A stretch of DNA of 64,000 nucleotides from an uncultured Spirochaetota bacterium (GTDB taxonomy: Bacteria; Spirochaetota; UBA4802; UBA5550), in the NCBI GenBank assembly GCA_963827275.1, contig CAWHAA010000005.1:448001-512000 (forward strand). Reading direction: 5' to 3'. Numbering within the stretch: position 1 is the stretch's first letter; every line of letters begins with the position of its first letter. The position numbers were made by a program, and so were the translations under genes. Of this stretch, positions 2,448-20,418 are shown one piece after another. Under the pieces are notes generated by a model, which saw nothing but the letters and a program-made list of their open reading frames with translations, made no database searches and was not told the origin of the DNA.

Positions 2448-3902
2448 ATGAAACATATATACATCCCCGCCGGCGGCAACGGCAAACCAAAAGACGAATG
2501 CGGAATATTCGGCATCTACGGCACCCCGAAGGCGGCGAACCTCGCCTACCTGGGCCTGTACGCGCTCCAGCACCGCGGGCCAGGAATCAGCCGGCATCGC
2601 CTCGTCCGACGGCCACCACATCTACCGCTACGCCGGCATGGGCAAGGTCGTGGACATCTTCAAGGAAGAGCACATCGACAACCTGCAGGGCCACATGGCA
2701 ATCGGCCACAACCGGTACTCCACCACCGGGTCGTCGTTCCTCAGGAACGCCCAGCCGTTCCGCTCCGAATCGATCCTGGGGCCCATCGTGCTGGCGCACA
2801 ACGGCAACCTGACCAACGCCGGCTCGCCCTCCGCTACGAACTCGAGAAAAAGGGACACATCTTCCAGACCACCATCGATTCCGAGGTGATCGTCCACCTG
2901 ATGGCCAAATCGGGGATCGAGGACTTCCTGGACGCGCTGGTATTCGCGCTCAAGCAGGTGAAGGGGCGCCTACTCGCTTCTGGTCATGAACCGGGAAAAG
3001 ATCTACGCGGTGCGCGATCCCTACGGCTTCCGGCCGCTGGTGATCGGGAAGGTCGGCGACACGCACCGTCGTCGCCTCGGAGACCTGCGCCTTCGACATC
3101 ATCGACGCGAAGTACGTCCGCGAGGTCGAGGCCGGCGAGCTGGTGGAGATTTCCGCGGCGGGCATCAAGTCATACCGCCCGTTCGAGAAGAAGGAGCAGT
3201 CGCTCTGCGTGTTCGAGTACATCTACTTTTCCCGGCCGGACAGCATCATCTTCAACAGGTCGGTGTACGACATGCGGATCAGGCTGGGCCGGCATGCTCG
3301 CGCGGCAGGCGCCGGTCGAGGCCGACATCGTGGTCCCCATACCGGACTCGTCGGTGTGCGCCGCCATCGGCTATTCCCGGGAGTCCGGCATCCCCTACGA
3401 GCTCGGGCTCATCCGCAGCCACTACATCGGCCGCACCTTCATCGAGCCGTCGCAGAAGATACGCGACTTCGGGGCAAAGATCAAGTACAACGTGGTGCGC
3501 GCCTCGGTGGCGGGAAAGCGGATCGTCGTGGTGGACGACTCCATCATGCGCGGCACCACCATGCGCAAGATCATCAAGATGTTCCGCACCGCCGGCGCCA
3601 CGGAGATCCACGTGCGCATATCGGCGCCCCCCACGAAATTCCCCTGCTTCTACGGCATCGACATCCCCACCCGCAAGGAGCTCATCGCCTCAACGCACTC
3701 GATCGAGGAGATACGCAAATACCTCCGCGTGGATTCGATCGAGTACATGAGCGTGGAAACAATGCTCCAGGCCCTGGACGAGCCGGACATGCATTTCTGC
3801 ACCGCCTGCTTCGACGGCACGTACCCCTGCGAGCTTGACGAGACGTGCGAGGACAACCAGAAATACCTGTTCGAAGATTCAGGAAATAATGAATATTATT
3901 AA
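2448..3902 (+). CDS. purF: Amidophosphoribosyltransferase, split over three frames by about 5 single-base frameshifts (probably sequence errors)
   Basis: Propeptide then CGIFG, ALQHRG(QE), GHNRYSTTG, AHNGNLTN, RDPYGFRPL, CVFEYIYFSRPDS, VVVDDSIMRGTT, PCFYGID, CTACF; frame switches near 2578, 2825, 2965, 3066, 3292. Confidence 0.92.
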   Translation: MKHIYIPAGGNGKPKDECGIFGIYGTPKAANLAYLGLYALQHRGPGISRHRLVRRPPHLPLRRHGQGRGHLQGRAHRQPAGPHGNRPQPVLHHRVVVPQERPAVPLRIDPGAHRAGAQRQPDQRRLALRYELEKKGHIFQTTIDSEVIVHLMAKSGIEDFLDALVFALKQVKGRLLASGHEPGKDLRGARSLRLPAAGDREGRRHAPSSPRRPAPSTSSTRSTSARSRPASWWRFPRRASSHTARSRRRSSRSACSSTSTFPGRTASSSTGRCTTCGSGWAGMLARQAPVEADIVVPIPDSSVCAAIGYSRESGIPYELGLIRSHYIGRTFIEPSQKIRDFGAKIKYNVVRASVAGKRIVVVDDSIMRGTTMRKIIKMFRTAGATEIHVRISAPPTKFPCFYGIDIPTRKELIASTHSIEEIRKYLRVDSIEYMSVETMLQALDEPDMHFCTACFDGTYPCELDETCEDNQKYLFEDSGNNEYY

Positions 3903-4370: not shown

Positions 4371-6827
4371 TCAATTGCCCCCGCGCACCGGCCAGACATA
4401 CCGCTCTGAACCTGTTGTGCCGGTTTTTTCCCATGTTCCTGTCTCGGTGCCATACGGGACGTTCATTAAATACGCTCTTGAAGCACTGGTCATGGCAGTG
4501 GTTGATGACCAGTGACACTGTGTCACATAATTTGCAAATCCCGTGCTGAACTGCTGCCCGAATGTCTTTTCGTACTGCTGAAGGCTCGACAATTCAAGGA
4601 TATTGGGCAGACGCCAGTCGTTATATCCCGCATAGTTATCCGTATTGAGCTGGTCAACAAAAGCAAGGGCATTCTCCCAGTATACCCCGCCGTTTCCGGC
4701 CGTTTGATCCGCATCAAAAGTGGGATAACTGGTCAGCATCAGGTTCAGGTCGGTCGTCCACATGAGTCCGGTAAGGTTATCGGTCGTGGTGCCGTCGCCG
4801 TTAATGGTGAACCTCGGGTCAGGTCTGGCGATCCCCGCCTGGTATTCTCCATCCTGTCCCGTACCCGGGCAGGCGACCACGGCGCCGGCGGTATCATAAC
4901 ACGTTGCCTGGCCTGTCTTCGGGAGTATCGTCGTGGTGCCTGCGACTGCCCACACATTGAATATAGTAGACTTGGGCGTAGCGTACTTTTCCCCTGAGGA
5001 AAAATCGACAGGCCATGCCTGTGCATGATTGGAGGCATTATCGTATGCCGTGTATGTGGTGGATGACCAGTAATACGTGCCGACATTGGCGAACCCGTTA
5101 GAGGTGAGCCATGCAGCCGTACTCGTGGCCCCGTAATTCATCAGGCTCTTCAGCTCAATAATGTTCGGGATCCGCCAGTCCGTCTGTCCGGCGTAGGTTT
5201 CAGCCCTGAGCTGGGCCGCAAAATCAAGGGCGGATTGCCAGTCTGTCCGTCCATCAACCGTGCCGTCGGTATCAAGATATGAATAGGTTGGGCTGTTCAT
5301 TAATTTCGCGTCAGTGGTCCAGATGAGGCCGGTAAGGTTGTCCGTGATAGTGCCGTTGAAATTATCGGTGAACCTCATGGTCGGCCATGTGGCTCCGTAC
5401 TGGTATTCGCCGTCCTGGCCGGTGCCCGAGCAGGCAACGGCGGCGCCGGCCGCGTCGTAGCAGTTGGTCTGCCCGGTCCGGGGCACCTGCACCGGATACG
5501 CGGGCAGCTGGTAATTGATTGTCAGGGTCGATGCGGGGCTGACCACGCTTATGTTTCCGGCGGCGTCCTTGAGCCACAGGTAGAGAACATGCGCGCCCGG
5601 GATCGCCTTCAGAAGGCAGGTTGCCGGCGCGGCAGCGAGCCATCCGGGATCCGCCGCGGCAGGCGAAGTCGGCGATTCGGTTATCATGTAGCCGGTGACC
5701 GCCGTGTTGTCCCAGACGGTCATGGTTACCGGGATCTGCTGGCTGGTGGTCGGGTCCACAGAGCTGGTGGAAAACGACACGACCGTCGGCGCCACAGTGT
5801 CGAGGTAAACGACCGAAAAATGCGTGCCGGTGGCCGCCGCGCTCACGTTGCCGGCGGCGTCTTTCACCCAGAGGTACACCTCGTAGGTGCCGCAGCCGCC
5901 CGACAGGCTGTATGCTGTCGGCTCTGAAGCCAGCCATCCCGCGTCTCCCGCTCCGGGCTGCACGCCCGTCTCGTTGATCATCCAGCCCGTGATACCCACA
6001 TCGTCGGACGCGCTGATGCTCACGCTTATGCCGTCCGTACCCGTTGCCGTCGGTCCGGTGAAGGAAGCGACCACCGGCGCCGTCATGTCATTGTACACGA
6101 TCTGGAAATGCGAGGGCGTCATCATAGCGCTCACGTTGCCGGCGGCGTCCATCGCCCAGGCGTAGAGTTCATACGTGCCGTATCCCCCCGTCAGCGTGTA
6201 GGCCGACGGCTGGGCAGTCTGCCACCCGAGGTCGGTCGGCAGGGGGGACGTTGCCGTCTCGGTGATCATCCACCCCGTGACCCCGATATTGTCCGATGTC
6301 GTCATGTCAACCGATATCACCGGATCGACCGTCGGGTTCGTGGTCGGCGACATGTATGAAAAATATGATACCACGGGCGGCTCGCCGTCGCCCGGGCCGG
6401 AGTAATCGACCGTGAAATGCGAATCCGCGCTCAGGGCGCTGACGTTGCCGGCGGCGTCCCTCGCCCAGACATAGAGCTCATGCGTGCCGAATCCGGAAGT
6501 GATGGTATAGGTTGCCGGCTGGGTCGCCAGCCATCCCGAATCGGTAGGCAGCGGCGCCGCGGCGATTTCGTTGATCATCCACCCGGTGATCCCGACATCA
6601 TCGGTTGCCGTCAGGTCTATATTTATTAATGCATCCGTTGTCGGATTAATGGGTGTCGAAAAAAGCGTGATGACCGGCGCCTGGGTATCAGCCGGGGCAG
6701 CCGGACCGCTGTCGATGCCAAAAAATGACATCATGGATTCATTGGAAGAATTATCCTCGAGGTCGTTTCGTTCGCAGGACAGCAGAAAAAATGCTGCAAA
6801 AAAAACCACAAAAAAATATCTCTTCAT
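4371..6827 (-). CDS. Surface lipoprotein: four Ig-like repeats plus two DUF1566 (Lcl C-terminal) domains
   Basis: Lipobox MKRYFFVVFFAAFFLLSC; four ~100-aa repeats D.xAPV...D.VG.TGWMI.E...GW...LY.W..DAAGN.S; two copies of P(R/K)TGQ..CY...GQDG...RFT.N..GT.TDNLTGL.W...DWR.PNI.EL.SL...WSSTT. Confidence 0.85.
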   Translation of the reverse strand: MKRYFFVVFFAAFFLLSCERNDLEDNSSNESMMSFFGIDSGPAAPADTQAPVITLFSTPINPTTDALINIDLTATDDVGITGWMINEIAAAPLPTDSGWLATQPATYTITSGFGTHELYVWARDAAGNVSALSADSHFTVDYSGPGDGEPPVVSYFSYMSPTTNPTVDPVISVDMTTSDNIGVTGWMITETATSPLPTDLGWQTAQPSAYTLTGGYGTYELYAWAMDAAGNVSAMMTPSHFQIVYNDMTAPVVASFTGPTATGTDGISVSISASDDVGITGWMINETGVQPGAGDAGWLASEPTAYSLSGGCGTYEVYLWVKDAAGNVSAAATGTHFSVVYLDTVAPTVVSFSTSSVDPTTSQQIPVTMTVWDNTAVTGYMITESPTSPAAADPGWLAAAPATCLLKAIPGAHVLYLWLKDAAGNISVVSPASTLTINYQLPAYPVQVPRTGQTNCYDAAGAAVACSGTGQDGEYQYGATWPTMRFTDNFNGTITDNLTGLIWTTDAKLMNSPTYSYLDTDGTVDGRTDWQSALDFAAQLRAETYAGQTDWRIPNIIELKSLMNYGATSTAAWLTSNGFANVGTYYWSSTTYTAYDNASNHAQAWPVDFSSGEKYATPKSTIFNVWAVAGTTTILPKTGQATCYDTAGAVVACPGTGQDGEYQAGIARPDPRFTINGDGTTTDNLTGLMWTTDLNLMLTSYPTFDADQTAGNGGVYWENALAFVDQLNTDNYAGYNDWRLPNILELSSLQQYEKTFGQQFSTGFANYVTQCHWSSTTAMTSASRAYLMNVPYGTETGTWEKTGTTGSERYVWPVRGGN

Positions 6828-7134
6828 TTTTATTACTCCATGCCCATAACTGTATACAATATACGATAGATGAGTCATAACGTCAAATTCAATATAATAA
6901 TTTAATTTAAGATATTAATTAAAATATAAGTTTTATATTTATTTGATTACTTTTTAAATCGAAAACAACGACATATTGTGATTAAAATTTGATCCTTATA
7001 TGAATTAGTCGGAACAACGACCAACCACAATAAGCAAAATGAGAGAATTCACAAAAACAGTTCCAACGGACCATAGTATGCCGTATCCCGTAAATTCCGG
7101 TAAACAAGAATTCCTCATTGACACACGCCGCCAG

Positions 7135-7162: not shown

Positions 7163-7360
7163 ATCATCCCGCCCACTGGTGAAGCTTGCCGACTGGTTCT
7201 GTACCGAGATCGGCAACACCTTCATCATCAAAAAATACCAGCTCGATTTTCTTTTAGCGAACTACCGGGACACGACCCCGGTGCTGTTCAACATGTACGA
7301 CGGCCTGCTGTACAAGAACGGCAGGGGCGCTCTGTTCATCTGCAATTACGCCCTCTTCTC
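7161..7360 (+). pseudogene. Orphan coding-like fragment without RBS or clear start
   Basis: Host-like GC3-rich codons encoding VKLADWFCTEIGNTFIIKKYQLDFLLANYRDTTPVLFNMYDGLLYKNGRG; in-frame TAA at 7155; runs into the convergent M20 gene. Confidence 0.35.
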
Positions 7361-7378
7361 CCCTGCCCGTCCCGCCGG

Positions 7379-8847
7379 TCACATGCCGTCCGCGTTCCGG
7401 ACAAGCTGTATATTGAAGCGTATGATGTCAGCGTAGTTTTCGACCGCGATGCGCTCGTTGGTGCCGTGCACGCGGTCAAGGTCTTCCTGCGCGTAGCGCA
7501 GCGGGCAGAACCTGAATATGCTGTCGCTGATCGGTATGTAGAAGCGCGAATCCGTGGCCGCCACAAACAGGAACGGGCGTGACGATGACGCCGGGGAACA
7601 CCTCCCTGATCGTTTTGCTGCAGCATGCCGTACGCCGGCAGCCCCGTGTCGGTCACCGGGGACGGGTCCCGCCCGTCGGGCAGGGGGGCAATCGTCACCC
7701 GCGCATCATCCACCGTCACCCGCGCCCGGTCTGCCACGCCGCGCATGGTATCGCCCGGAAAGATGCGGAAGTTCACCACCGCGGTCGCCCGCTGCGGGAG
7801 CACGTTGTCCCGCGTGCTCCCCCGGAGCATGGTCGGGGCGATGGTAGTGCGGAGCGCGGCGGACATCGACGGGGACGCGCCCAGCTGCGTGCTGACAACG
7901 GCCCCCAGCAGCCAGAGGTTCGAGAGGGCCAGCCGGTTCCCGAGCCCCATGTGCGGGCCGACCGTCTCGAGCATCTGGCGGGTCACGCCCCGGACCCGCA
8001 GCGGGTACTGGCGATTCTCAAGACGGCTCACCGCGGCGCAGAGTATGCCGACAGCGGTCTCCTCGGGCGGCATGGACGAATGGCCCCCGGCGCCCGCGAC
8101 AGAAAGCTCCAGGGAGAGGTAGCCCTTCTCGGCCGTGCCCACCAGCGCGACCGGCTCCTTCACGCCGGCGACCATGCCGCTGGAGATGAAGCCGCCCTCG
8201 TCCACGACCATCCCGAACCGGACGCCGCGCGATGCGAGCATTGCCGCGATTTTCCCGTTCCCATCGACACCGCGGACCTCCTCCGTGTGCCCCACCGCGA
8301 GGCAGACAGTGCGCCGCGGCCGGAAGCCCCGGGCGAGCAGGTACTCAAACGCCTCGAGCGTGCCCATCAGGCTTGACTTGATGTCCTGCGTGCCCCTGCC
8401 CCAGACATACCCGCCCGCGAGGGCGCCGGAAAAGGGCGGATGCGTCCAGTCCCTGACCGTGCCGGGCTCAACAGGCACCACGTCGCTGTGCGCCATCAAT
8501 AAAACGGGCTTCAACGTCGGGTCGCTCCCCTTCCAGGTGTAGAGGAGGCTGTAGCCGTTAACGGTCTCGCGTTTCAGGCGGGCCCGCACCAGGGGAAAGG
8601 CGCGGTCGAGGTAGGCGTTGAACTCCGCAAACGGCCTCCTGTCGAAGCGCCCCGGGTCCATGCTCGATACTGTCTGATAGCGGACCGCTTCCGCCAGCCG
8701 CTCCAGCGCCCCGCGCATGTTGATGTCCGCTTTCGCAGCGGGAGTTACCGCAAGCTGTTTCGAGGTGAAACGCGCCGTTCGGACGAGCACGATCCCCGCG
8801 AGCAAAATAACGATGGCGGCAATACCGATACTGATTTTTTTCATCAT
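7379..8847 (-). CDS. M20 family peptidase/amidohydrolase (CPS1/PM20D1-like, N-terminal membrane anchor), frameshifted near the 3' end
   Basis: AHSDVVP, WGRGTQDIK, GHTEE, VDEGG, GGHSSMPP; C-terminus ATDSRFY...RVHGTNERI lies in the 7379..7564 frame. Confidence 0.88.
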
Positions 8848-9097: not shown

Positions 9098-9170
9098 AGG
9101 TGACTAGCTCAATTGGTAGAGCAGCGGTCTCCAAAACCGCAGGTTGGGGGTTCGATTCCCTCGTCACCTG
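9098..9170 (+). tRNA. trnW: tRNA-Trp (CCA anticodon); 3' CCA not encoded
   Basis: Acceptor AGGTGAC/GTCACCT, D arm GCTC-AATTGGTA-GAGC, anticodon arm GCGGT-CTCCAAA-ACCGC, T loop GTTCGATTC. Confidence 0.97.
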
Positions 9171-9183
9171 CATGCTAGTACGC

Positions 9184-9216
9184 AAAAAGGCGGGGTTGAA
9201 CGACCCCGCCTTTTTT
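9184..9216. terminator. Bidirectional terminator after tRNA-Trp (left end of islet 1)
   Basis: AAAAAGGCGGGGT-TGAACG-ACCCCGCCTTTTTT. Confidence 0.85.
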
Positions 9217-9249
9217 ATTTGTATACTGAAGCATTAAAATATGGCATAT

Positions 9250-9666
9250 TTATTTTTTCTTGAATGGATTAACAACTCTCAGTTTCTTGTCAATAACCTG
9301 TCCGTCACTCATATCCTCTGAATAGAGAAGTGTGCATTTGTTTTCCAATGCACTGCTGATAATCATGCTGTCATAATATGAAAATCCATATTGATCGACG
9401 ATATTCAATGCTGATTGTATTGTCTTAGGAGTAATATTCTTTACAACGCAAATCCTGGAAAGGAATTCTACGGCAATCTTTATATCACTGACCTTAAGAT
9501 TCAGTTTTCTATATAAGACATTCGATATCTCATTGAGGACCTGAGTGGAAATAACGGGATTCTTCTTCAGCAATTCATTTGCGATTACTTTCTTATAATC
9601 CTCAGCACCAAAGGAATAAATAATCACATTGGAATCGAGAAATATCTTATCTCTGGTTGGCTTCAT
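9250..9666 (-). CDS. PIN-domain (VapC-like) toxin
   Basis: IFLDSNVIIY, ISTQVLNE, FSYYDSMII, LLYSEDM: the acidic PIN residues. Confidence 0.9.
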   Translation of the reverse strand: MKPTRDKIFLDSNVIIYSFGAEDYKKVIANELLKKNPVISTQVLNEISNVLYRKLNLKVSDIKIAVEFLSRICVVKNITPKTIQSALNIVDQYGFSYYDSMIISSALENKCTLLYSEDMSDGQVIDKKLRVVNPFKKK

Positions 9667-9880
9667 CTCTGTTGAATGTGAATCCGCTTAAATCAAACCG
9701 AAAATTATTGAAAAAGGCGTCGATTTCATTTTCTCTAATATTCTTCCTTGCTTTGGCTTTTGCCGCTATTTCTTTATAATGCAAGGTTACTTCAACAGGA
9801 TTGGTTATCTTCTGCTGATATTTCTTAGGAATGACTATAATGCCATTCCTTGTTTTTGTTGAAAATTTTATTGATTTCAT
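9647..9880 (-). CDS. Putative antitoxin (AbrB-like N-terminus)
   Basis: 77 aa, NGIIVIPK, C-terminal FTFNRDEANQR; overlaps the PIN gene start. Confidence 0.75.
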   Translation of the reverse strand: MKSIKFSTKTRNGIIVIPKKYQQKITNPVEVTLHYKEIAAKAKARKNIRENEIDAFFNNFRFDLSGFTFNRDEANQR

Positions 9881-10271
9881 ATTCCCGAATAATTCAAAGT
9901 TCAATTCAATTTATATGTCTATATTTACATTTTTATTGAAAATTGTACAACAAATTTTTCCAATATATTGATATATTATTATGATTTTATCAGCCTTATG
10001 ATTGGTTTATGAATGAAAAATCAATTATTCCTGCCCTTTTCCACCTCCCAGATCATGAAATCGAGTATAATCTCATCAATAACCGGGTTCGAAAATCGTC
10101 CCTGATTGCCTGCAGAACGGGACTTACACTTTTCAGGCAGATGGTTGACCTGGGCCATGACTTTTGGATCGAGCAGGAAGGAAAAGGGCTTGATCCAGTC
10201 GATTCTTACACCGAATATACCATCACAATAAATATCCGAAGTTATTATTTTAAGCCTTACAATTAGGGAAA

Positions 10272-11620: not shown

Positions 11621-11653
11621 AGCACCTCCATGAATTGATACTATTTGTGTAGC

Positions 11654-11691
11654 GCTACTATAATAGTAGCATACTGTCATCAATAAGTCAA
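11654..11691 (-). promoter_or_regulatory. Promoter of hxlR-nitroreductase with palindromic operator over the -10 box
   Basis: Minus strand TTGACT-17 bp-TACTAT; palindrome GCTACTAT-A-ATAGTAGC at 11654-11670. Confidence 0.65.
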
Positions 11692-11803: not shown

Positions 11804-11879
11804 TTATGTCGCTTTTCTGTACCAAATCATTACATTAAGCAGACAAGTGTCCAATAGTTTAAGTCCCATCTCACCTGCA
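11804..11879. repeat. Islet right-end repeat, copy 1 (att-like; includes antisense 21-codon ORF 11869->11804)
   Basis: Ungapped homology with 17158-17233; last 29 bp identical (CCAATAGTTTAAGTCCCATCTCACCTGCA). Confidence 0.9.
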
Positions 11880-12069
11880 TGCACAGAAAAGGCGGGGTTG
11901 CACGACCCCCGCCTGTATATTTGACCTTACCAACATGTATTCGCACAACTTATTGAACCTTCGCATATCCTGCATTTAGAAAAAATGAAATTTTTAACAA
12001 AATTTTAACGCATAACCGACCCATTCTTACATCACCAAAATAGTCAAATGCTGAAAATAATATTAGTAT

Positions 12070-12441
12070 TTGCATATGGCTATTAGTGAGCACTACTCTG
12101 ATAATAAATTTAGACTATCACATTTTGTGATAACAATTACCATAAGCGGGATAACCGCCAGCGAATATATCTATTATGAAAAAGAAAACATTATACGAGA
12201 GACCACACATCCGACAACAATTGATAAAAATGAGCGATCACTAATAATACAAATGAATTATATGCAAGGTAAAAACATTAGTCTTACATTGGATGATTTT
12301 ATAAACTTTTTCGAAAACCTGCCGGAATGGATCATGACCAGATATTATCAATTATATGATCACCACGATAATAGTAAATATATCAGTAAAATCAATTTAT
12401 TGAGTAAATATTCAACAATGAACATAGAGATGCGTAAATAA
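12070..12441 (+). CDS. Hypothetical protein (start uncertain)
   Basis: 123-codon ORF in AT-rich DNA, stop 1 bp before the ktrB start; no motif recognised. Confidence 0.4.
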   Translation: MHMAISEHYSDNKFRLSHFVITITISGITASEYIYYEKENIIRETTHPTTIDKNERSLIIQMNYMQGKNISLTLDDFINFFENLPEWIMTRYYQLYDHHDNSKYISKINLLSKYSTMNIEMRK

Positions 12442-12442
12442 C

Positions 12443-13789
12443 ATGAAGAAAAAGCATGTTACCCATAAAACATCTCCAATAACACTACTATCATCAGGAT
12501 ATGCAATTCTCATAGTGATAAGCGCCGGCATTCTCTCACTACCGTTTTCTTCGACAAAATCTGTTTTTACACCCTATCTTGATTCACTTTTTACCGCGAC
12601 ATCGGCGATTACAACAACCGGATTGATAGTATTTGATACGGGAACATATTATAATATGTTCGGGCAGATTATTATTCTATTATTATTTCAGATTGGTGGT
12701 CTGGGATATATGCTCTTTGTAATTCTGATATTTATTGTCTTTCAACAAAGAATATCCATACAAAGCAATCTCATGCTTCAGGAATCGATTAAAAAACCCC
12801 TCAAGGTAGATATTCTATACTTTTTAAAAATGATTATCCTGTTTACGATATTTATTGAAATTATTGGGGCAATAATTTTATCGCTTCTATTGTATCAATA
12901 TTTTCCCTTAAGCCATTCAATATATTCAGGAATATTTCATTCCATATCCGCTTTTAATACCGCTGGTTTTTCGATTTATCAGGATAGTTTCTGCAAATTC
13001 AGCGATAATATTTCCCTGAATATAGCCATAATTTGCATCAGCACTCTCGGCTCTCTTGGATTTTTTGTACTCTTTGATATTTATAAATATTACATGGAAA
13101 GATCAAAAGGAATAAAGAATATAAAATTATCAGTCCATTCACGGATAATACTTATTTGTACTATAACAATCCTGATAGCGGGGTCATTTCTTGTATTCAT
13201 TATTGAATATTACAGCAACAGTGCTCCGCTCAAATTCAAACTGTTATCCTCATTATTCCAGGTTTCCTCCGCGTCAACAACAACGGGTTTCAATTCAATT
13301 GATATAGGAAAGATGAATGAAAGCACACTGTTTTTAATTGTAATAATGATGTTCATCGGTGCCGGTTCAGGAGGAACAGGCGGAGGAATAAAAATGACCA
13401 CCCTGGTTGTCACGCTATTATCGGTTTATGCCATAATACGGAATAAGAATACCGTGAATATTTTTAAAAGAAGGTTGCCTTTTGAAATCATCAGAAACTC
13501 ATTCGCCATTTTCATATTATCAATATCATGGGTAACACTCATAACATATATTCTATCAATTACGGAAAACAAGGGATTTGTCAGTTTATTATTCGAGACA
13601 GGATCTGCGTTGGGGACTGTAGGATTATCTACCGGTATAACAGCCGATTTAAGCAGCATTGGTAAAGTATTGATTACTCTATCCATGTTTATCGGACGTA
13701 TAGGTCCCCTGGGTATTGGAATATCATTGCTTACAAGCGCCGAAGAACCCGGTTACAAATATTCCACTACTGACGTCTTTATTGGGTGA
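12443..13789 (+). CDS. ktrB: KtrB/TrkH-type K+ uptake membrane subunit
   Basis: Four pore-loop glycine motifs TTTGL, NTAGF, TTTGF, GTVGLSTG; MFIG..GGTGGGIK; MFIGRIG. Confidence 0.9.
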   Translation: MKKKHVTHKTSPITLLSSGYAILIVISAGILSLPFSSTKSVFTPYLDSLFTATSAITTTGLIVFDTGTYYNMFGQIIILLLFQIGGLGYMLFVILIFIVFQQRISIQSNLMLQESIKKPLKVDILYFLKMIILFTIFIEIIGAIILSLLLYQYFPLSHSIYSGIFHSISAFNTAGFSIYQDSFCKFSDNISLNIAIICISTLGSLGFFVLFDIYKYYMERSKGIKNIKLSVHSRIILICTITILIAGSFLVFIIEYYSNSAPLKFKLLSSLFQVSSASTTTGFNSIDIGKMNESTLFLIVIMMFIGAGSGGTGGGIKMTTLVVTLLSVYAIIRNKNTVNIFKRRLPFEIIRNSFAIFILSISWVTLITYILSITENKGFVSLLFETGSALGTVGLSTGITADLSSIGKVLITLSMFIGRIGPLGIGISLLTSAEEPGYKYSTTDVFIG

Positions 13790-13798
13790 GGATTATTC

Positions 13799-14452
13799 AT
13801 GAAACAGTTTTTAATTATTGGACTCGGGAATTTTGGGTATAATCTTGCCTGTGAACTATTTAAAATAGGCAATGAAGTAATCGTCGTTGACAGCAATGAA
13901 ACGCTGATCAATAAGATAAAGGAAAATGTTTCACACGCGATAATCGCAGACGCAAAGCAGGTTGATAATATCAAGGATTTCATCGGCAAAAAAACCGATG
14001 CCGTTATTTTAAACCTGGGCGAATCACTCGAAGAGACCGTTTTGGTAACACTTGCGGTGAAAAACCTTGGGGCAAAAAACATAATCGTGAAAGTGACAAA
14101 CGAGGAACACGGTATGATCGCAAAGAAACTCGGCGCAACGGAAATAATTATCCCGGAAAGGGATTATGCCAAACAAATGTCAAAAAAATTGACAAGCGAG
14201 AATTTACTTGATTATCTTCCTCTGTCGCCTGAATATGGGATCTATGAGATAGCCGTGCCGGATCATTTTACCGGTAAAAGGTTAAATGAATTGAATATTC
14301 GGAAAAAATATAATGTAAATGTAGTCGCGATAAAGGACATATTAAAAGACATTACTATTATCAATCCGGAACCTGATTTTAAATTTATACCGGATATGGT
14401 ACTATATTTATTAGGTAAAAGTGATGATATCATCAATTTGAAAAAAATGTAG
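13799..14452 (+). CDS. ktrA: KtrA/TrkA-type RCK regulatory subunit
   Basis: IIGLGNFG Rossmann motif, IIPE, RCK_C GKRLNELNIRKKYNVNVVAI. Confidence 0.9.
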   Translation: MKQFLIIGLGNFGYNLACELFKIGNEVIVVDSNETLINKIKENVSHAIIADAKQVDNIKDFIGKKTDAVILNLGESLEETVLVTLAVKNLGAKNIIVKVTNEEHGMIAKKLGATEIIIPERDYAKQMSKKLTSENLLDYLPLSPEYGIYEIAVPDHFTGKRLNELNIRKKYNVNVVAIKDILKDITIINPEPDFKFIPDMVLYLLGKSDDIINLKKM

Positions 14453-14492
14453 CTCCATAGAAAAAAATAATAACATTAAATGGAGTAAATCA

Positions 14493-16436
14493 TTGAAGGC
14501 TTCACCAGGTTTTATAGTTGCCATAAGCCCAAGCCCCTATTCCCAGCATCTGATCAAATGGACGCAGAAAACCGCCGTTGAGCAAAATCTCCCCTGGGTG
14601 GCGGTATATATTCAAACCAGCAAAGAACTTACGAATGAAGAGAATACCCTGCTTAAAAAAAACATACAGCTGGTCAAAGACCTTGGAGGGGAATTATTAT
14701 CGTCAATGGATGACAATGTCCCGCTGGCAATCATGCGCATAGCAAGGCAGCGTACTATTTCACACATAGTAGTAGGTAAACCGCTTGGTTATAAATCTTC
14801 TGGAATAATGAACAAAACGAATATTATTGACACACTAATAAGTATTAGCGGCGAAATTGATATATTTGTCATTTCCGAACAGAGTGTCAGACCGGAAAAG
14901 AGAAAAAGTGTATCTGTTTTTATTCGTAATTTATTATCAGGAAACAAGATTGAATATTTCCATGTTATTTTATGGCTGCTCATCATCATTATAATCAATC
15001 TGTATTTAATCAGATATATAAGCTATCTGTCGGTTGGTTTTATCTTTCTGGCCGCCGTTGCCGTTGTCTCCTCATATTACAAAAAAGGCCCTGTATTATT
15101 ATTCGCCAGTATCAGTGCAGTATTATGGAATTTTTTATTTATCAAACCACGATTTACCATTTATATAGACCATCTCGAAGATCTCTTTATGTTTCTTATG
15201 TATTTTATTACAGCATTTATTATTGGCAATCTTACAACAAAGCTACGCCTCAAAGAAATATTCCTGAGAAAGAGGGAAAAGAATCTTGAAGAACTGTACA
15301 TGATGGGTAAAATTCTCAATGAGTCCAACAATCTGGATGAGATTTTAGATAAATCAACAGCTTTGCTCAGAAATATTTTTAATGCTAAAATTTCGGTATT
15401 TCTAATACCTGATAACGATACTCTTTCATTACTGCCGCGCAGGGGAAACGACTTTACCTTTCCGGAGAATGAACGAGAAGCAATTCTCTATTGTTTTGAA
15501 AACAAAAAACCTTCAGGTAAAAACACCAGTATCATGAGTGGATCGAAATACCATTATATCCCCCTGCACAATCACAGCATTCAGGCGGGCGTTTTGGCCA
15601 TTGATTATAATGACAAAAGCGGATTATCAATTGAACAGGAAAACCTGTTGTTTGCCCTTGTGTCTCAAATAACATCTGCCCTGGAGAGAGACGAGTTTAT
15701 TAAAACACAGCAAAAAATAAAATTAGCGGAAGAATCAGAACGATTATACCAGATATTGCTCAATTCAGTATCGCATGAACTTCGGACGCCCATCACAACA
15801 ATATCAACATCGGCCAATGGCCTGGTAGATGAAAAACTTGCTCAAAATGAGGAGGTACGAAAAATTTTCGCGACCGATATTATTGAATCATCGGACCGTT
15901 TAAATCGAATAGTCGACAATCTTCTTGGTTCATTGCGGATTAAAAGTGAAAAGATTATACTCAATCTTGAATGGTATGATATATCCGAACTGGCGAGTCA
16001 TGTTCAGGGGAAACTTCACAATCTACTTAAGAATCATAATTTTATCGTAAAAATAGACAATTCAATACCCACGTTAAAATTTGATTTCACGCTTATGGAG
16101 CAACTATTGACAAACCTGATTTACAATGCCATACTATATACGCCGCAGGGCAGCGAGATACAATTGAATATTGAGGCGGATCAAAATATGATATACATAT
16201 CAGTTATTGATAATGGACCTGGAATACCCGACGATGAAAAAGATAAAGTATTTCAGAAGTTCTATCGGGTAAAATCAATTAAAAAAGGCGGCCTTGGGCT
16301 TGGACTATCTATTTGCAAAGAAATCGCCGAAATCCACAAGGGCTCAATTAACGTTACGACAGGTTCAGCCGGAGGAGCGCATTTTACTGTCACATTGCCC
16401 CTGCAACAAAGCACTGTACATGGTGAATTACAATGA
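14493..16436 (+). CDS. kdpD: KdpD-like sensor histidine kinase lacking the N-terminal KdpD domain
   Basis: TTG start; Usp-like domain, 4 TM helices (WNFLFIKPRFT), GAF-like region, SVSHELRTP, DNGPGI, GLGLGLSIC. Confidence 0.82.
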   Translation: MKASPGFIVAISPSPYSQHLIKWTQKTAVEQNLPWVAVYIQTSKELTNEENTLLKKNIQLVKDLGGELLSSMDDNVPLAIMRIARQRTISHIVVGKPLGYKSSGIMNKTNIIDTLISISGEIDIFVISEQSVRPEKRKSVSVFIRNLLSGNKIEYFHVILWLLIIIIINLYLIRYISYLSVGFIFLAAVAVVSSYYKKGPVLLFASISAVLWNFLFIKPRFTIYIDHLEDLFMFLMYFITAFIIGNLTTKLRLKEIFLRKREKNLEELYMMGKILNESNNLDEILDKSTALLRNIFNAKISVFLIPDNDTLSLLPRRGNDFTFPENEREAILYCFENKKPSGKNTSIMSGSKYHYIPLHNHSIQAGVLAIDYNDKSGLSIEQENLLFALVSQITSALERDEFIKTQQKIKLAEESERLYQILLNSVSHELRTPITTISTSANGLVDEKLAQNEEVRKIFATDIIESSDRLNRIVDNLLGSLRIKSEKIILNLEWYDISELASHVQGKLHNLLKNHNFIVKIDNSIPTLKFDFTLMEQLLTNLIYNAILYTPQGSEIQLNIEADQNMIYISVIDNGPGIPDDEKDKVFQKFYRVKSIKKGGLGLGLSICKEIAEIHKGSINVTTGSAGGAHFTVTLPLQQSTVHGELQ

Positions 16437-17125
16437 AAGAAGGCGGTCTCATTCTTGTTGTTGACGACGAAACTCAAATCCGGAGATTTTTAAAAATCAG
16501 CCTGGAATCAAATGGTTATAAAGTTATTGAAGCTGACACCGGTGAAGAAGGAATAACCCAAACCGCCACAATTACTCCTGATATAATAATACTCGATCTC
16601 GGCCTGCCTGACATGGATGGACTTGATTTTGTAAAAAGAGTCCGGGAGTGGAGCACCATTCCAATTATAATATTAACGGTGAAGGATTCAGAAAAAGACA
16701 AAGTGATTCTTCTTGATAACGGCGCTGACGATTATCTGACCAAACCATTCAGCCTGAATGAACTTATGGCAAGAATACGGGTCGCATTCAGGCACAAACA
16801 CTCTGACAAGGGCACTCAGGTTTTCAAATCGGGAAAAATATCTATCGATTTTGATAAACGCATCGTAAAGGTAAATGATGAAAAGATAAAACTTACCCCG
16901 AAGGAATATGCTGTTTTAACCCTGCTTGCGAGAAACGCCGGTAAAGTTCTGACCCAGAATTATATACTTAAAGAATTATGGGGACCGTATTATCAAGAAG
17001 AATCACAATATTTAAGAATCTATATAATGCAAATCAGAAAGAAAATTGAAGATAATCCAAGTAATCCGACAATTATCATAACTGAACCGGGGATTGGTTA
17101 TAGATTTGTTGCTGACTATGATTGA
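16433..17125 (+). CDS. kdpE: KdpE-like OmpR-family response regulator
   Basis: VVDDETQIRRFL, LDLGLPDMDG, GADDYLTKPF, YLRIYIMQIRKKIEDNPSNP..IITEPGIGYRF; ATGA overlap with kdpD. Confidence 0.88.
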   Translation: MKEGGLILVVDDETQIRRFLKISLESNGYKVIEADTGEEGITQTATITPDIIILDLGLPDMDGLDFVKRVREWSTIPIIILTVKDSEKDKVILLDNGADDYLTKPFSLNELMARIRVAFRHKHSDKGTQVFKSGKISIDFDKRIVKVNDEKIKLTPKEYAVLTLLARNAGKVLTQNYILKELWGPYYQEESQYLRIYIMQIRKKIEDNPSNPTIIITEPGIGYRFVADYD

Positions 17126-17157
17126 TTTCATCATTTGGATAATCAGCAAACTCAATA

Positions 17158-17233
17158 TCAAGCCGCTTTCCTGTACCAGATAATGACATTCAGCAACGAA
17201 ATGCCCAATAGTTTAAGTCCCATCTCACCTGCA
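17158..17233. repeat. Islet right-end repeat, copy 2 (att-like; includes antisense 21-codon ORF 17223->17158)
   Basis: Homologous to 11804-11879; ends in TCACCTGCA like tRNA-Trp. Confidence 0.9.
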
Positions 17234-17241
17234 GACGAAAC

Positions 17242-17267
17242 CAGGAGGCGGGAGTTCCCGCCTCCTG
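17242..17267. terminator. GC hairpin downstream of katG (possibly the pre-insertion tRNA terminator)
   Basis: CAGGAGGCGGGA-GT-TCCCGCCTCCTG. Confidence 0.7.
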
Positions 17268-17299
17268 TCATTTTCAGAAAGATTGTCGACCCGCGCATG

Positions 17300-19489
<2,190 letters not shown>

Positions 19490-19960
19490 TTATTCCTTTA
19501 CCTGCGTTGTCAAAAAAACCTGGATCGACATCTGTTCTATCTGGCTCTGCAGCTCCTCGATGCCGTCCATGTGCGCGTCTTCGTCATTCAGTATCTGCTG
19601 GAGAAAATCGCGGGTCGCGAAATCCTTTACCTCGCCGGCAAGAATGATGGCCTCATTATATGCTTTTATGGCCCCCTCCTCAGCGGCGTGGTCGTTGGCC
19701 AGCTGCTTGTCCACCTTGTCCCCGATCATGATCTTGTTCAGCAGGCTGACCGTCGGCGTGCCTTCAAGGAACAGGATGCGGCCGATGAGCTTCTCCGCGT
19801 GCTTCATCTCGTCGATGGCGCGCTTCTCGAAATGCTTGTGGAGCTTTTCGTACCCCCAGTCGTCGCACATCTCCGAATGGACCATGTACTGGTTGATCGC
19901 CGTCAGCTCGTCAGCCAGCAGCGTATTGAGAGTAGTTAATAATTTTTCGTTGCCTTTCAT
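19490..19960 (-). CDS. bfr: Bacterioferritin
   Basis: MKGNEK..LADELTAINQY.VH, DEMKHA (haem-ligand Met), RILFLEG, DEDAH; GGGAGGGAG RBS. Confidence 0.93.
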   Translation of the reverse strand: MKGNEKLLTTLNTLLADELTAINQYMVHSEMCDDWGYEKLHKHFEKRAIDEMKHAEKLIGRILFLEGTPTVSLLNKIMIGDKVDKQLANDHAAEEGAIKAYNEAIILAGEVKDFATRDFLQQILNDEDAHMDGIEELQSQIEQMSIQVFLTTQVKE

Positions 19961-20019
19961 CACTCCCTCCCATTGATTGGTTTTAATTATAATAAGTCCG
20001 GATGGCCGTCGCCGAATGG

Positions 20020-20418
20020 TCAGCCTTTTTTTCTCTTCATGCATTTATCGCACGTGCCGTGAAATTGGATCGTATGGCCCGAAATGCTGTGCCGCGACAT
20101 TCCACGGGCCTTTTTCATTATGATATCCAGGGGCTGCATGGGAAAATCGGTCACGGTTTTACAGGTGTCACATATAAAGTGATAATGCAATCCCGGGATG
20201 GCATCGTAATGCTCAATACCGTCGTTGAACTCCCTGCGGGTTACGCGCCCCTCCTCAACCAGAATGTTGATATTGCGATACACGTTGCCGAGGCTGATGG
20301 ACGGCATCTCCTTTTTCAGGGCCTCGTATACGCTGCGCGCGGTCGGATGGTCCATCCGGGACCGTATGAACTCATAGATCCTTTCGCGCTGTATGCTTTT
20401 GCGACGGACGGATTTCAT
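20020..20418 (-). CDS. perR: Fur-family regulator, probably PerR-like
   Basis: HPTA..VY, ISLGNVYRN, HYHFICDTC, C-terminal CDKC; first gene of the fur-bfr-katG unit. Confidence 0.8.
   Translation of the reverse strand: MKSVRRKSIQRERIYEFIRSRMDHPTARSVYEALKKEMPSISLGNVYRNINILVEEGRVTRREFNDGIEHYDAIPGLHYHFICDTCKTVTDFPMQPLDIIMKKARGMSRHSISGHTIQFHGTCDKCMKRKKG

Follow-up and report, generated by a model that had tools for sequence, protein, structure and literature searches.

The closest described relatives of the system reported here are the ssrA islands of Dehalococcoides, which encode DsiB, a serine recombinase of approximately 540 residues located on the reverse strand beside attL (McMurdie et al., 2011; PMC3146451). 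The 3′ end of the DsiB gene always overlaps attL, with the stop codon lying in either the RNA gene or the adjacent island, and the islands occur in tandem, 15 of them without an integration module (PMC3146451). McMurdie et al. proposed that full function of the gene requires either the excised circle or a position downstream of an island carrying the 3′ fragment (PMC3146451). Here, we describe a related arrangement in a 64,000-nt stretch of DNA (the window) from an uncultured Spirochaetota bacterium (UBA4802; UBA5550; GenBank assembly GCA_963827275.1, contig CAWHAA010000005.1, positions 448,001–512,000), in which two short frames, read on the minus strand from 11869 to 11804 and from 17223 to 17158, stand behind a tRNA-Trp gene. 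With a probability of roughly 0.85, both frames correspond to residues 532–552 of a 552-residue large serine recombinase (LSR) whose gene spans its own crossover site, the frames were orphaned in cassettes that lost the rest of that gene, and exchange of the tail is likely to act as a switch on the enzyme.

Compared by description, the likeness to DsiB covers the integrase 3′ end lying over attL, the stop codon in the RNA gene or adjacent island, and tandem islands of which some lack an integrase (PMC3146451). The two systems differ in their target, which is tRNA-Trp here (tRNA-Asn and tRNA-His in relatives) rather than the ssrA transfer-messenger RNA. Moreover, the attP-side tail described here is a conserved helix, apparently under purifying selection and often ending in Ala-Ala, natural pairs bearing either tail exist, and the cassettes can be as small as approximately 0.9 kb. 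Integrons provide a second point of comparison for such arrays. Like integrons and cis-mobilizable elements (CIMEs), the arrays consist of integrase-less units stacked by site-specific recombination, the newest apparently proximal; unlike integrons, they rely on serine rather than tyrosine chemistry, and every unit includes part of the integrase gene. CIMEs and accretion are cited in the Dehalococcoides study as well (PMC3146451).

Other elements are also known to alter a protein upon integration. In the rumA integrative and conjugative elements of streptococci, the att site lies inside the gene for the serine integrase, and integration changes the length and C-terminus of the enzyme (Ambroset et al., 2016; PMC4701971); there, in contrast, the target is a protein gene, the frame changes, the elements are conjugative, and the available text describes no cassette arrays. 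In myxophage Mx8, attP lies inside int, and the integrated form receives a short foreign tail and altered activity, with 112 residues giving way to 13 (PMC4701971; PMC6070905). The Mx8 enzyme is a phage tyrosine recombinase, whereas the present one is a serine recombinase in which 22 residues are exchanged for 17–18. Finally, integration of mycobacteriophage BPs at a tRNA gene removes an ssrA-like C-terminal tag, although attP there lies in the repressor gene and the tyrosine integrase has a constant tag (PMC9262239), while here the split gene is that of the integrase. No paper testing the tail of a tRNA-targeting serine integrase was found in the literature search, and the available parts of two further papers (PMC12884075 and PMC11795197) contain nothing on it.

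The integrase gene that carries the tails

Full-length LSR genes occupy the tRNA-Trp position in three related genomes (G007, G012, and G062), and 22 of 64 genomes of the family contain a match at some level. Such a gene is oriented towards the tRNA, and when it adjoins the tRNA, its product ends in 17–18 residues encoded by the tRNA antisense strand. A 90% protein cluster comprises 30 members, and the 15 of them that were listed are divided between the peptide found in the window (8) and the tRNA-derived tail (7). The proteins P0032 and P0034 present this difference in isolation: without a single substitution over residues 1–530, they diverge only at the tail, which is tRNA-Trp antisense in the former and the window's peptide in the latter. 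Likewise, 9 of 15 metagenome loci reach the C-terminus, 3 with the window's tail and 6 with the tRNA tail; in the former three, gene and tail are joined where other cargo begins, and the stretch available contains no tRNA-Trp. Both tail types were also found within 4 of 10 further clusters looked up. Across six full-length proteins, the tails are 72% identical and the bodies 94%, as expected if neighbours supply the tails. An additional frame, detected in G011 by a Recombinase-domain search of five genomes, has lost its N-terminus; it points at tRNA-Trp and runs through the core into the tRNA antisense strand in the same frame. A preliminary description of this DNA had suggested that the window frames are the C-terminal tail of a gene spanning attP, exchanged upon integration for a tRNA-antisense tail in the same frame. 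The fused proteins bear out the core of that suggestion.

P0034 contains a resolvase domain (PF00239, E 3e-20) with the serine motif Y-x-R-x-S, R32 and S34 being nearly invariant, and a Recombinase domain (PF07508, E 8.5e-17), both over the cut-off; its match to the zinc-ribbon domain PF13408 (E 2.3e-4) fell below the cut-off. The predicted structure has helices at 357–404 and 410–461, in keeping with the coiled coil inserted into the zinc ribbon of LSRs, and the fold matches the solved serine integrases 9dxf, 9iu2, and 4kis (E 2e-20). LSRs recombine attP with attB in one direction, and a directionality factor reverses the reaction. Directionality factors bind at the hinge formed by zinc ribbon and coiled coil (PMC11795197; PMC11722253). 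A second integrase clade (clade 2), approximately 33% identical, uses the same tRNA, and two of its three complete cluster members bear the window's tail. No full-length integrase ending in either of two sister tails (families 2 and 3, below) was found in the searches. Tyrosine integrases were considered as the responsible enzymes, on a reading of the site as 15–16-bp arms flanking an 8-bp spacer, and rejected, none of the 37 PF00589 matches in five genomes lying at a mapped tRNA-Trp junction; it is the serine enzyme that crosses the site.

The preliminary description had also drawn a parallel with BPs, in which the tail would belong to a repressor split by attP. The polarity is alike, the BPs protein being tagged when free and untagged when integrated (PMC9262239). 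However, every full-length protein found with the tail is a serine recombinase, and viral contigs yielded no match to the arm or the integrase. Because the fused proteins are integrases, the repressor reading is refuted: the split gene is that of the serine integrase itself.

The integrase neighbours, in a scan of seven genes, include a gene for 124–131 aa, upstream of the integrase and without a Pfam match, as well as the module of loci L100 and L105, an AAA ATPase with a helix-turn-helix (HTH) protein; none belongs to the six-gene DsiB module (DsiA, RecF-like, ParBc, Mom). The G011 element differs from this module in carrying a TOTE-type primase-helicase and a small HTH_17 protein (L022, 12636–15713). 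Related integrases at tRNA-Asn and tRNA-His (L059–L069, L077, and L078) also enter the tRNA antisense strand, and some stop a few codons past the crossover.

Within the window, the two frames translate as previously reported and align without gaps. Codons 10, 11, 13, 15, and 18 differ synonymously, codons 7, 8, 9, 14, and 21 nonsynonymously, and the stop is TAA in one copy and TGA in the other. Both frames lie inside an 84-nt direct repeat with 81% identity between its copies (E 1e-16 for the pair; no third full copy was found in the genome). The repeat ends in a 9-bp core, present at 9164–9172, 11871–11879, and 17225–17233, that also forms the tRNA-Trp 3′ end. The frames had been said to overlap the att site; codons 1–6 do fall in the recombination arm, but the frame only adjoins the core. 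Two copies alone cannot select a frame, because the plus-strand frame that shares their third positions is almost equally biased; it is the fused proteins rather than the copy pair that decide it.

The frames had been placed at the right ends of two islets. They do stand at right ends of cassettes, but the first islet proved to be two cassettes, the junction at 10114 having been overlooked. A TAG described as closing the frame at the left end of that islet is present, and the attached caveat, that the gene body would be lost, agrees with the genome (92% complete), in which a search found no Recombinase-domain gene and only C-terminal remnants. The window tails are thus best described as orphan LSR ends, each closing on the right a cassette that lacks an integrase, in a stack behind tRNA-Trp. 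In this genome, translation of either frame is unlikely; a look-up of RNA runs for the stretch returned none.

Further copies and the conserved frame

When 61 genomes were searched with the repeat, 19 matched at E ≤ 0.1. Strong matches were found in 10 of 60 relatives (9 of 16 within the genus and 1 in another genus), often several per contig, and a chance repeat is therefore not the explanation; the other 8 matches were short and weak. A profile run over 27 genome regions and the 15 metagenome loci gave 42 matches, up to 8 per contig, which sit behind tRNA-Trp wherever the tRNA was on the stretch. Of these, 4 lacked the anchor, 2 were duplicates, and 7 had indels or had diverged heavily; their removal left 29 ungapped copies. 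Among these, codon 1 is ATG in 18, ACG in 8, AGG in 2, and ATA in 1, while codon 22 is a stop in 24 (the first stop in 21), although 17 different codons occur at position 21. Conservation thus extends to the end of the frame but not to its start.

This pattern bears on the proposal that each frame is an independent gene for a peptide of 21 residues, for instance a type I toxin, translated from its ATG. Both window copies do begin with ATG, and their peptides combine moderate hydrophobicity (highest mean hydropathy over 17 residues, 1.2 and 1.6) with a basic end. However, 11 of the 29 copies lack ATG as codon 1, P0040 has Thr at that position within a full-length integrase, families 2 and 3 have no start codon, and the Shine-Dalgarno-like word, 1 nt from the ATG, is the crossover core. 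A free peptide, the second possibility raised in the preliminary description, is accordingly very improbable, and the tail of an LSR is preferred.

The ratio of nonsynonymous to synonymous changes per site (pN/pS) over codons 7–20 is 0.54 in the proposed frame, 0.60 in the antisense frame sharing third positions, and 0.85–1.12 in the other four. The earlier claim of protein-level selection, made from two copies, thereby gains from the larger set the ratio that it called for but not the choice of frame, which depends on the fused proteins. The plus-strand frame was examined as a candidate in its own right; it is open and biased, but only shares third positions and contains more stops (5 and 8 of 29).

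Two further tail families were recognized. Family 2 has 22 copies in the searched regions, 18 of which were used for pN/pS; family 3, at tRNA-Asn, has six copies in the window's genome spaced approximately 0.85–1.7 kb apart, and 16 of 17 copies were used. Ratios for the three families are 0.54, 0.44, and 0.18, against 0.76–2.27 for frames that do not share third positions, and all three share a D-x-x-L-L-x-x-[MI]-I-W core. Tails of the tRNA-Asn array are nearly all in frame, though they lack an integrase body. This second array lies behind tRNA-Asn (G000 C6, 307876–307949) and consists of small units, each ending in a family 3 tail (C6 309179, 310200, and 311035; C10 848, 1691, and 2590).

Alternatively, the block may be conserved mainly as DNA, whether as a longer attachment arm, a site for an accessory protein, or a promoter directed inward, with the integrase merely reading through it and the peptide being neutral. 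Part of the block is constrained in this way. Codons 1–6 repeat 12 bp of the opposite arm in inverted orientation; L105 has a natural junction at which a word of 12 bp in tail codons 1–5 is an exact inverted repeat (12/12) of a word in the integrase 3′ end, 16 bp apart. The word is T-loop-like and lies at the tRNA's own distance from the core. Body-less orphan cassettes still retain the block, and DsiB C-termini are described as divergent (McMurdie et al., 2011; PMC3146451). Copy 1 additionally has a promoter-like TGGACA-16-AATGAT with TG, and in 52 of 81 junction rows, counting duplicates, the closest cargo frame is directed inward. A promoter scan, however, found 38 sites where chance predicts 30 ± 6, with no minus-strand site in copy 2, and the promoter version was rejected because the count does not exceed chance. 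Codons 7–21 lie beyond the inverted repeat, the stop is retained as TAA or TGA, and family 3 shows 0 second-position against 35 third-position changes. Furthermore, helix-plus-Ala-Ala tails recur in integrases of approximately 30% identity on unrelated DNA. Because the arm word is an inverted repeat, codons 1–6 are constrained as DNA, and the protein signal comes from codons 7–22. A purely DNA-level role for the whole block is therefore unlikely, and selection on an integrase tail remains the favoured explanation.

The arms of the families differ in register. In the family 2 arm, the T-loop-like word lies 5 bp further out than in the tRNA, while in the window's arm it has the same register as the tRNA. 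In characterized LSRs, the outer binding motif lies 5 bp nearer the centre in attB than in attP (PMC3783163).

Four junctions (G006C1 115670, G010C17 268740, and G011C1 214340 and 224548) have a tRNA-like stretch at the core that is one base longer, leaving the tail out of frame; they may stem from a crossover at a shifted position or from conversion by the tRNA end. Two others (G008 C7 1197363 and C4 26598) share a near-identical junction and a neighbouring 191-aa gene, one of them on a stretch in which no tRNA-Trp was found, which may reflect a secondary site, a duplication, or a binning artefact.

Cassette mobility and the proposed tail switch

A near-identical strain (run X2) provides a view of the cassettes in another arrangement. 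One of its contigs joins 11850 to 17205 within the repeat, so that cassette C (Table 1) is gone exactly between the repeats. In the same run, the tRNA continues into an arm of the clade 2 integrase type, and a second family 2 arm precedes cassette A; both fit an additional element at the tRNA-proximal position, ahead of cassette A. Joints in which one side is only 18–29 letters long were left out of the count. A joint between 10108 and 9167, considered as a circle, is better read as the second family 2 arm.

The ends of the tails raise the possibility of proteolytic control. Integrases of approximately 30% identity terminate in tRNA-antisense ends or short helices; when these classes were sorted by eye, 8 of 16 helix-type tails and 0 of 22 tRNA-type tails ended in Ala-Ala. 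Such ends also occur in 23 of 136 further family proteins, compared with 16 of 2644 long frames of the genome (0.6%). The 136 proteins derive from the best 150 of 4946 profile matches at E ≤ 1e-30, and the profile itself contained Ala-Ala tails; from another set of relatives, 120 of 297 proteins, mostly distant, were viewed only. Among the 21 tail copies with the first stop at codon 22, 9 end in Ala-Ala. The genome has clpX, and its host tag ends in LAA. Ala-Ala ends are recognized by ClpXP. This recognition is likewise stated for the BPs tag (PMC9262239). An ssrA-like ClpXP degron in the tail is therefore plausible, and we give roughly even odds to a free Ala-Ala end handing many members of the family to ClpXP, thereby keeping their activity brief.

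Taken together, the tail swap is likely to act as a switch, the enzyme alternating between a tail-less form and a complete one that is probably short-lived. An integrase gene next to the tRNA ends in the tRNA-antisense tail, and one next to such a right end terminates in the window's peptide. On the excised circle, or where a cassette separates the tRNA from an autonomous element, the enzyme would gain a C-terminal amphipathic helix for full activity, while the form adjacent to the tRNA would have lower activity or another direction, as in Mx8 (PMC4701971; PMC6070905). Cassettes would arise from autonomous elements that lose the integrase body; the arm would be kept as a recombination site, the tails would slowly decay, and cassettes would insert at the junction closest to the tRNA whenever integrase is available. 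More speculatively, a host-type left arm combined with a tail-bearing right arm would suit entry via an attL × attR-type exchange that rebuilds attB and a complete gene. The broadest version of this scheme, possible but doubtful, is that the arrays are a living integron-like system: an integrase-less cassette carrying the missing helix would enter at the tRNA-proximal junction by such an exchange, rebuilding attB at the tRNA and the neighbour's complete integrase gene, with the helix, timed by ClpXP, serving as a built-in switch of direction or activity, and with two 33%-identical integrases sharing tails.

Several observations weigh against the tail-switch reading. The antisense frame sharing third positions is nearly as biased as the proposed one, and, as the copies are related to one another, the codon statistics (permutation p 0.013 and 0.015) overstate the signal. 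Among 40 unique junctions, 19 were flagged as in frame from the core (G004C140 wrongly, being diverged), 12 are frameshifted, interrupted by a stop, or diverged, and 9 lack the core; the broken junctions are taken to reflect decay of orphan tails. Of the 21 copies noted above, only the 9 end in Ala-Ala, copy 1 ends in AT, and families 2 and 3 have no Ala-Ala ends. The tail helix is modelled at low confidence (predicted local distance difference test scores of approximately 33–51 and 51–65), behind a disordered linker. An LSR could also lie in a gap of the incomplete genome, the run X2 pieces are tied to one strain only through equal depth (30–36), and, for want of an identified tRNA-Trp site that is unoccupied, the host arm is a matter of inference.

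The window contains orphan tails only, and a tail-swap design has published precedents. Nevertheless, P0032 and P0034, with 530 identical residues and tails of 17 and 22 residues, constitute a natural test pair that makes the 2011 proposal of DsiB completion directly testable, along with the control of serine integrases without a known directionality factor. In integrase mining, enzymes taken from the integrated state at a tRNA carry a foreign tail and may be mis-scored. Within the genus, cassettes with stress, redox, ion-transport, and toxin-antitoxin functions dock at tRNA-Trp and tRNA-Asn.

Layout of the tRNA-Trp locus

The DNA from the tRNA to 17233 is mostly AT-rich and its surroundings are GC-rich. 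Coordinates of the features are collected in Table 1.

Table 1. Features of the tRNA-Trp cassette array (window coordinates)
Feature	Position	Strand	Basis or remark
tRNA-Trp(CCA), integration target	9098..9171	+	ARAGORN; crossover core at 3′ end, 9164–9172
tRNA antisense frame, supplying the integrase tail when an LSR element adjoins the tRNA	9109..9171	-	Ends P0031, P0032, P0041, and six metagenome loci; here without upstream LSR body and closed by TAG
Left arm of first cassette: short arm, GC hairpin, and T run, tRNA terminator-like	9173..9215	+	Terminator-like site 9184–9215
Cassette A, 942 bp: PIN-domain gene and small upstream gene	9173..10114		Joints 9166/10109 and 10108/9167 in public contigs
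Third tail, second family, 28 codons, overlooked in the preliminary description	10021..10107	-	Has the D-x-x-L-L-x-x-M-I-W helix; adjoins core ending at 10114
LSR 3′-end remnant, last ~50 codons before the core	10115..10254	-	tblastn; reads on, in frame, to the tail at 10107
Cassette B: ferredoxin-nitroreductase and HxlR regulator	10115..11879		Gene content
Tail copy 1, orphan LSR C-terminal 21 codons	11804..11869	-	Ends AT; 18/21 residues as in tail of P0030
attP-side arm and crossover core 11871–11879	11856..11879	+	12-bp motif 11856–11867, inverted repeat of LSR-side arm
Cassette C, 5354 bp: trkH, trkA, kdpD-like kinase, and kdpE-like regulator	11880..17233		Missing in the run X2 contig
Tail copy 2, orphan LSR C-terminal 21 codons	17158..17223	-	Ends AA; 19/21 residues as in tail of P0030
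attP-side arm and crossover core 17225–17233	17210..17233	+	Sequence repeat
Eroded LSR 3′ remnant	17242..17291	-	88% identity over 50 nt

The arm that follows the tRNA is likely the host-side attB arm; arms of this type follow 13 of 31 junctions with a recognizable core. At the left end of cassette B, the segment 10130–10209 has 97.5% DNA identity to the LSR of L105. The eroded remnant beyond cassette C marks the left end of a further, older cassette containing katG, bacterioferritin, and fur, for which a right end was not found. In the window, the remnant and these three genes occupy 17234–20418. Genes of the katG cluster also lie within or directly after the arrays of G001, G011, G015, and G016, and the oxidative-stress block seems to move as cargo.

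Three features near the array can be added. An inverted repeat at 11631–11680, between the HxlR gene and tail copy 1 and upstream of HxlR, has an operator-like look. The purF-like (2448–3902) and M20 peptidase-like (7336–8847) genes are frameshifted in the list of open reading frames, probably through assembly errors. Finally, 4371–6878 encodes a predicted 835-aa lipoprotein with internal repeats of approximately 96–103 residues, and a related gene is located just upstream of tRNA-Trp in G011 and L103.

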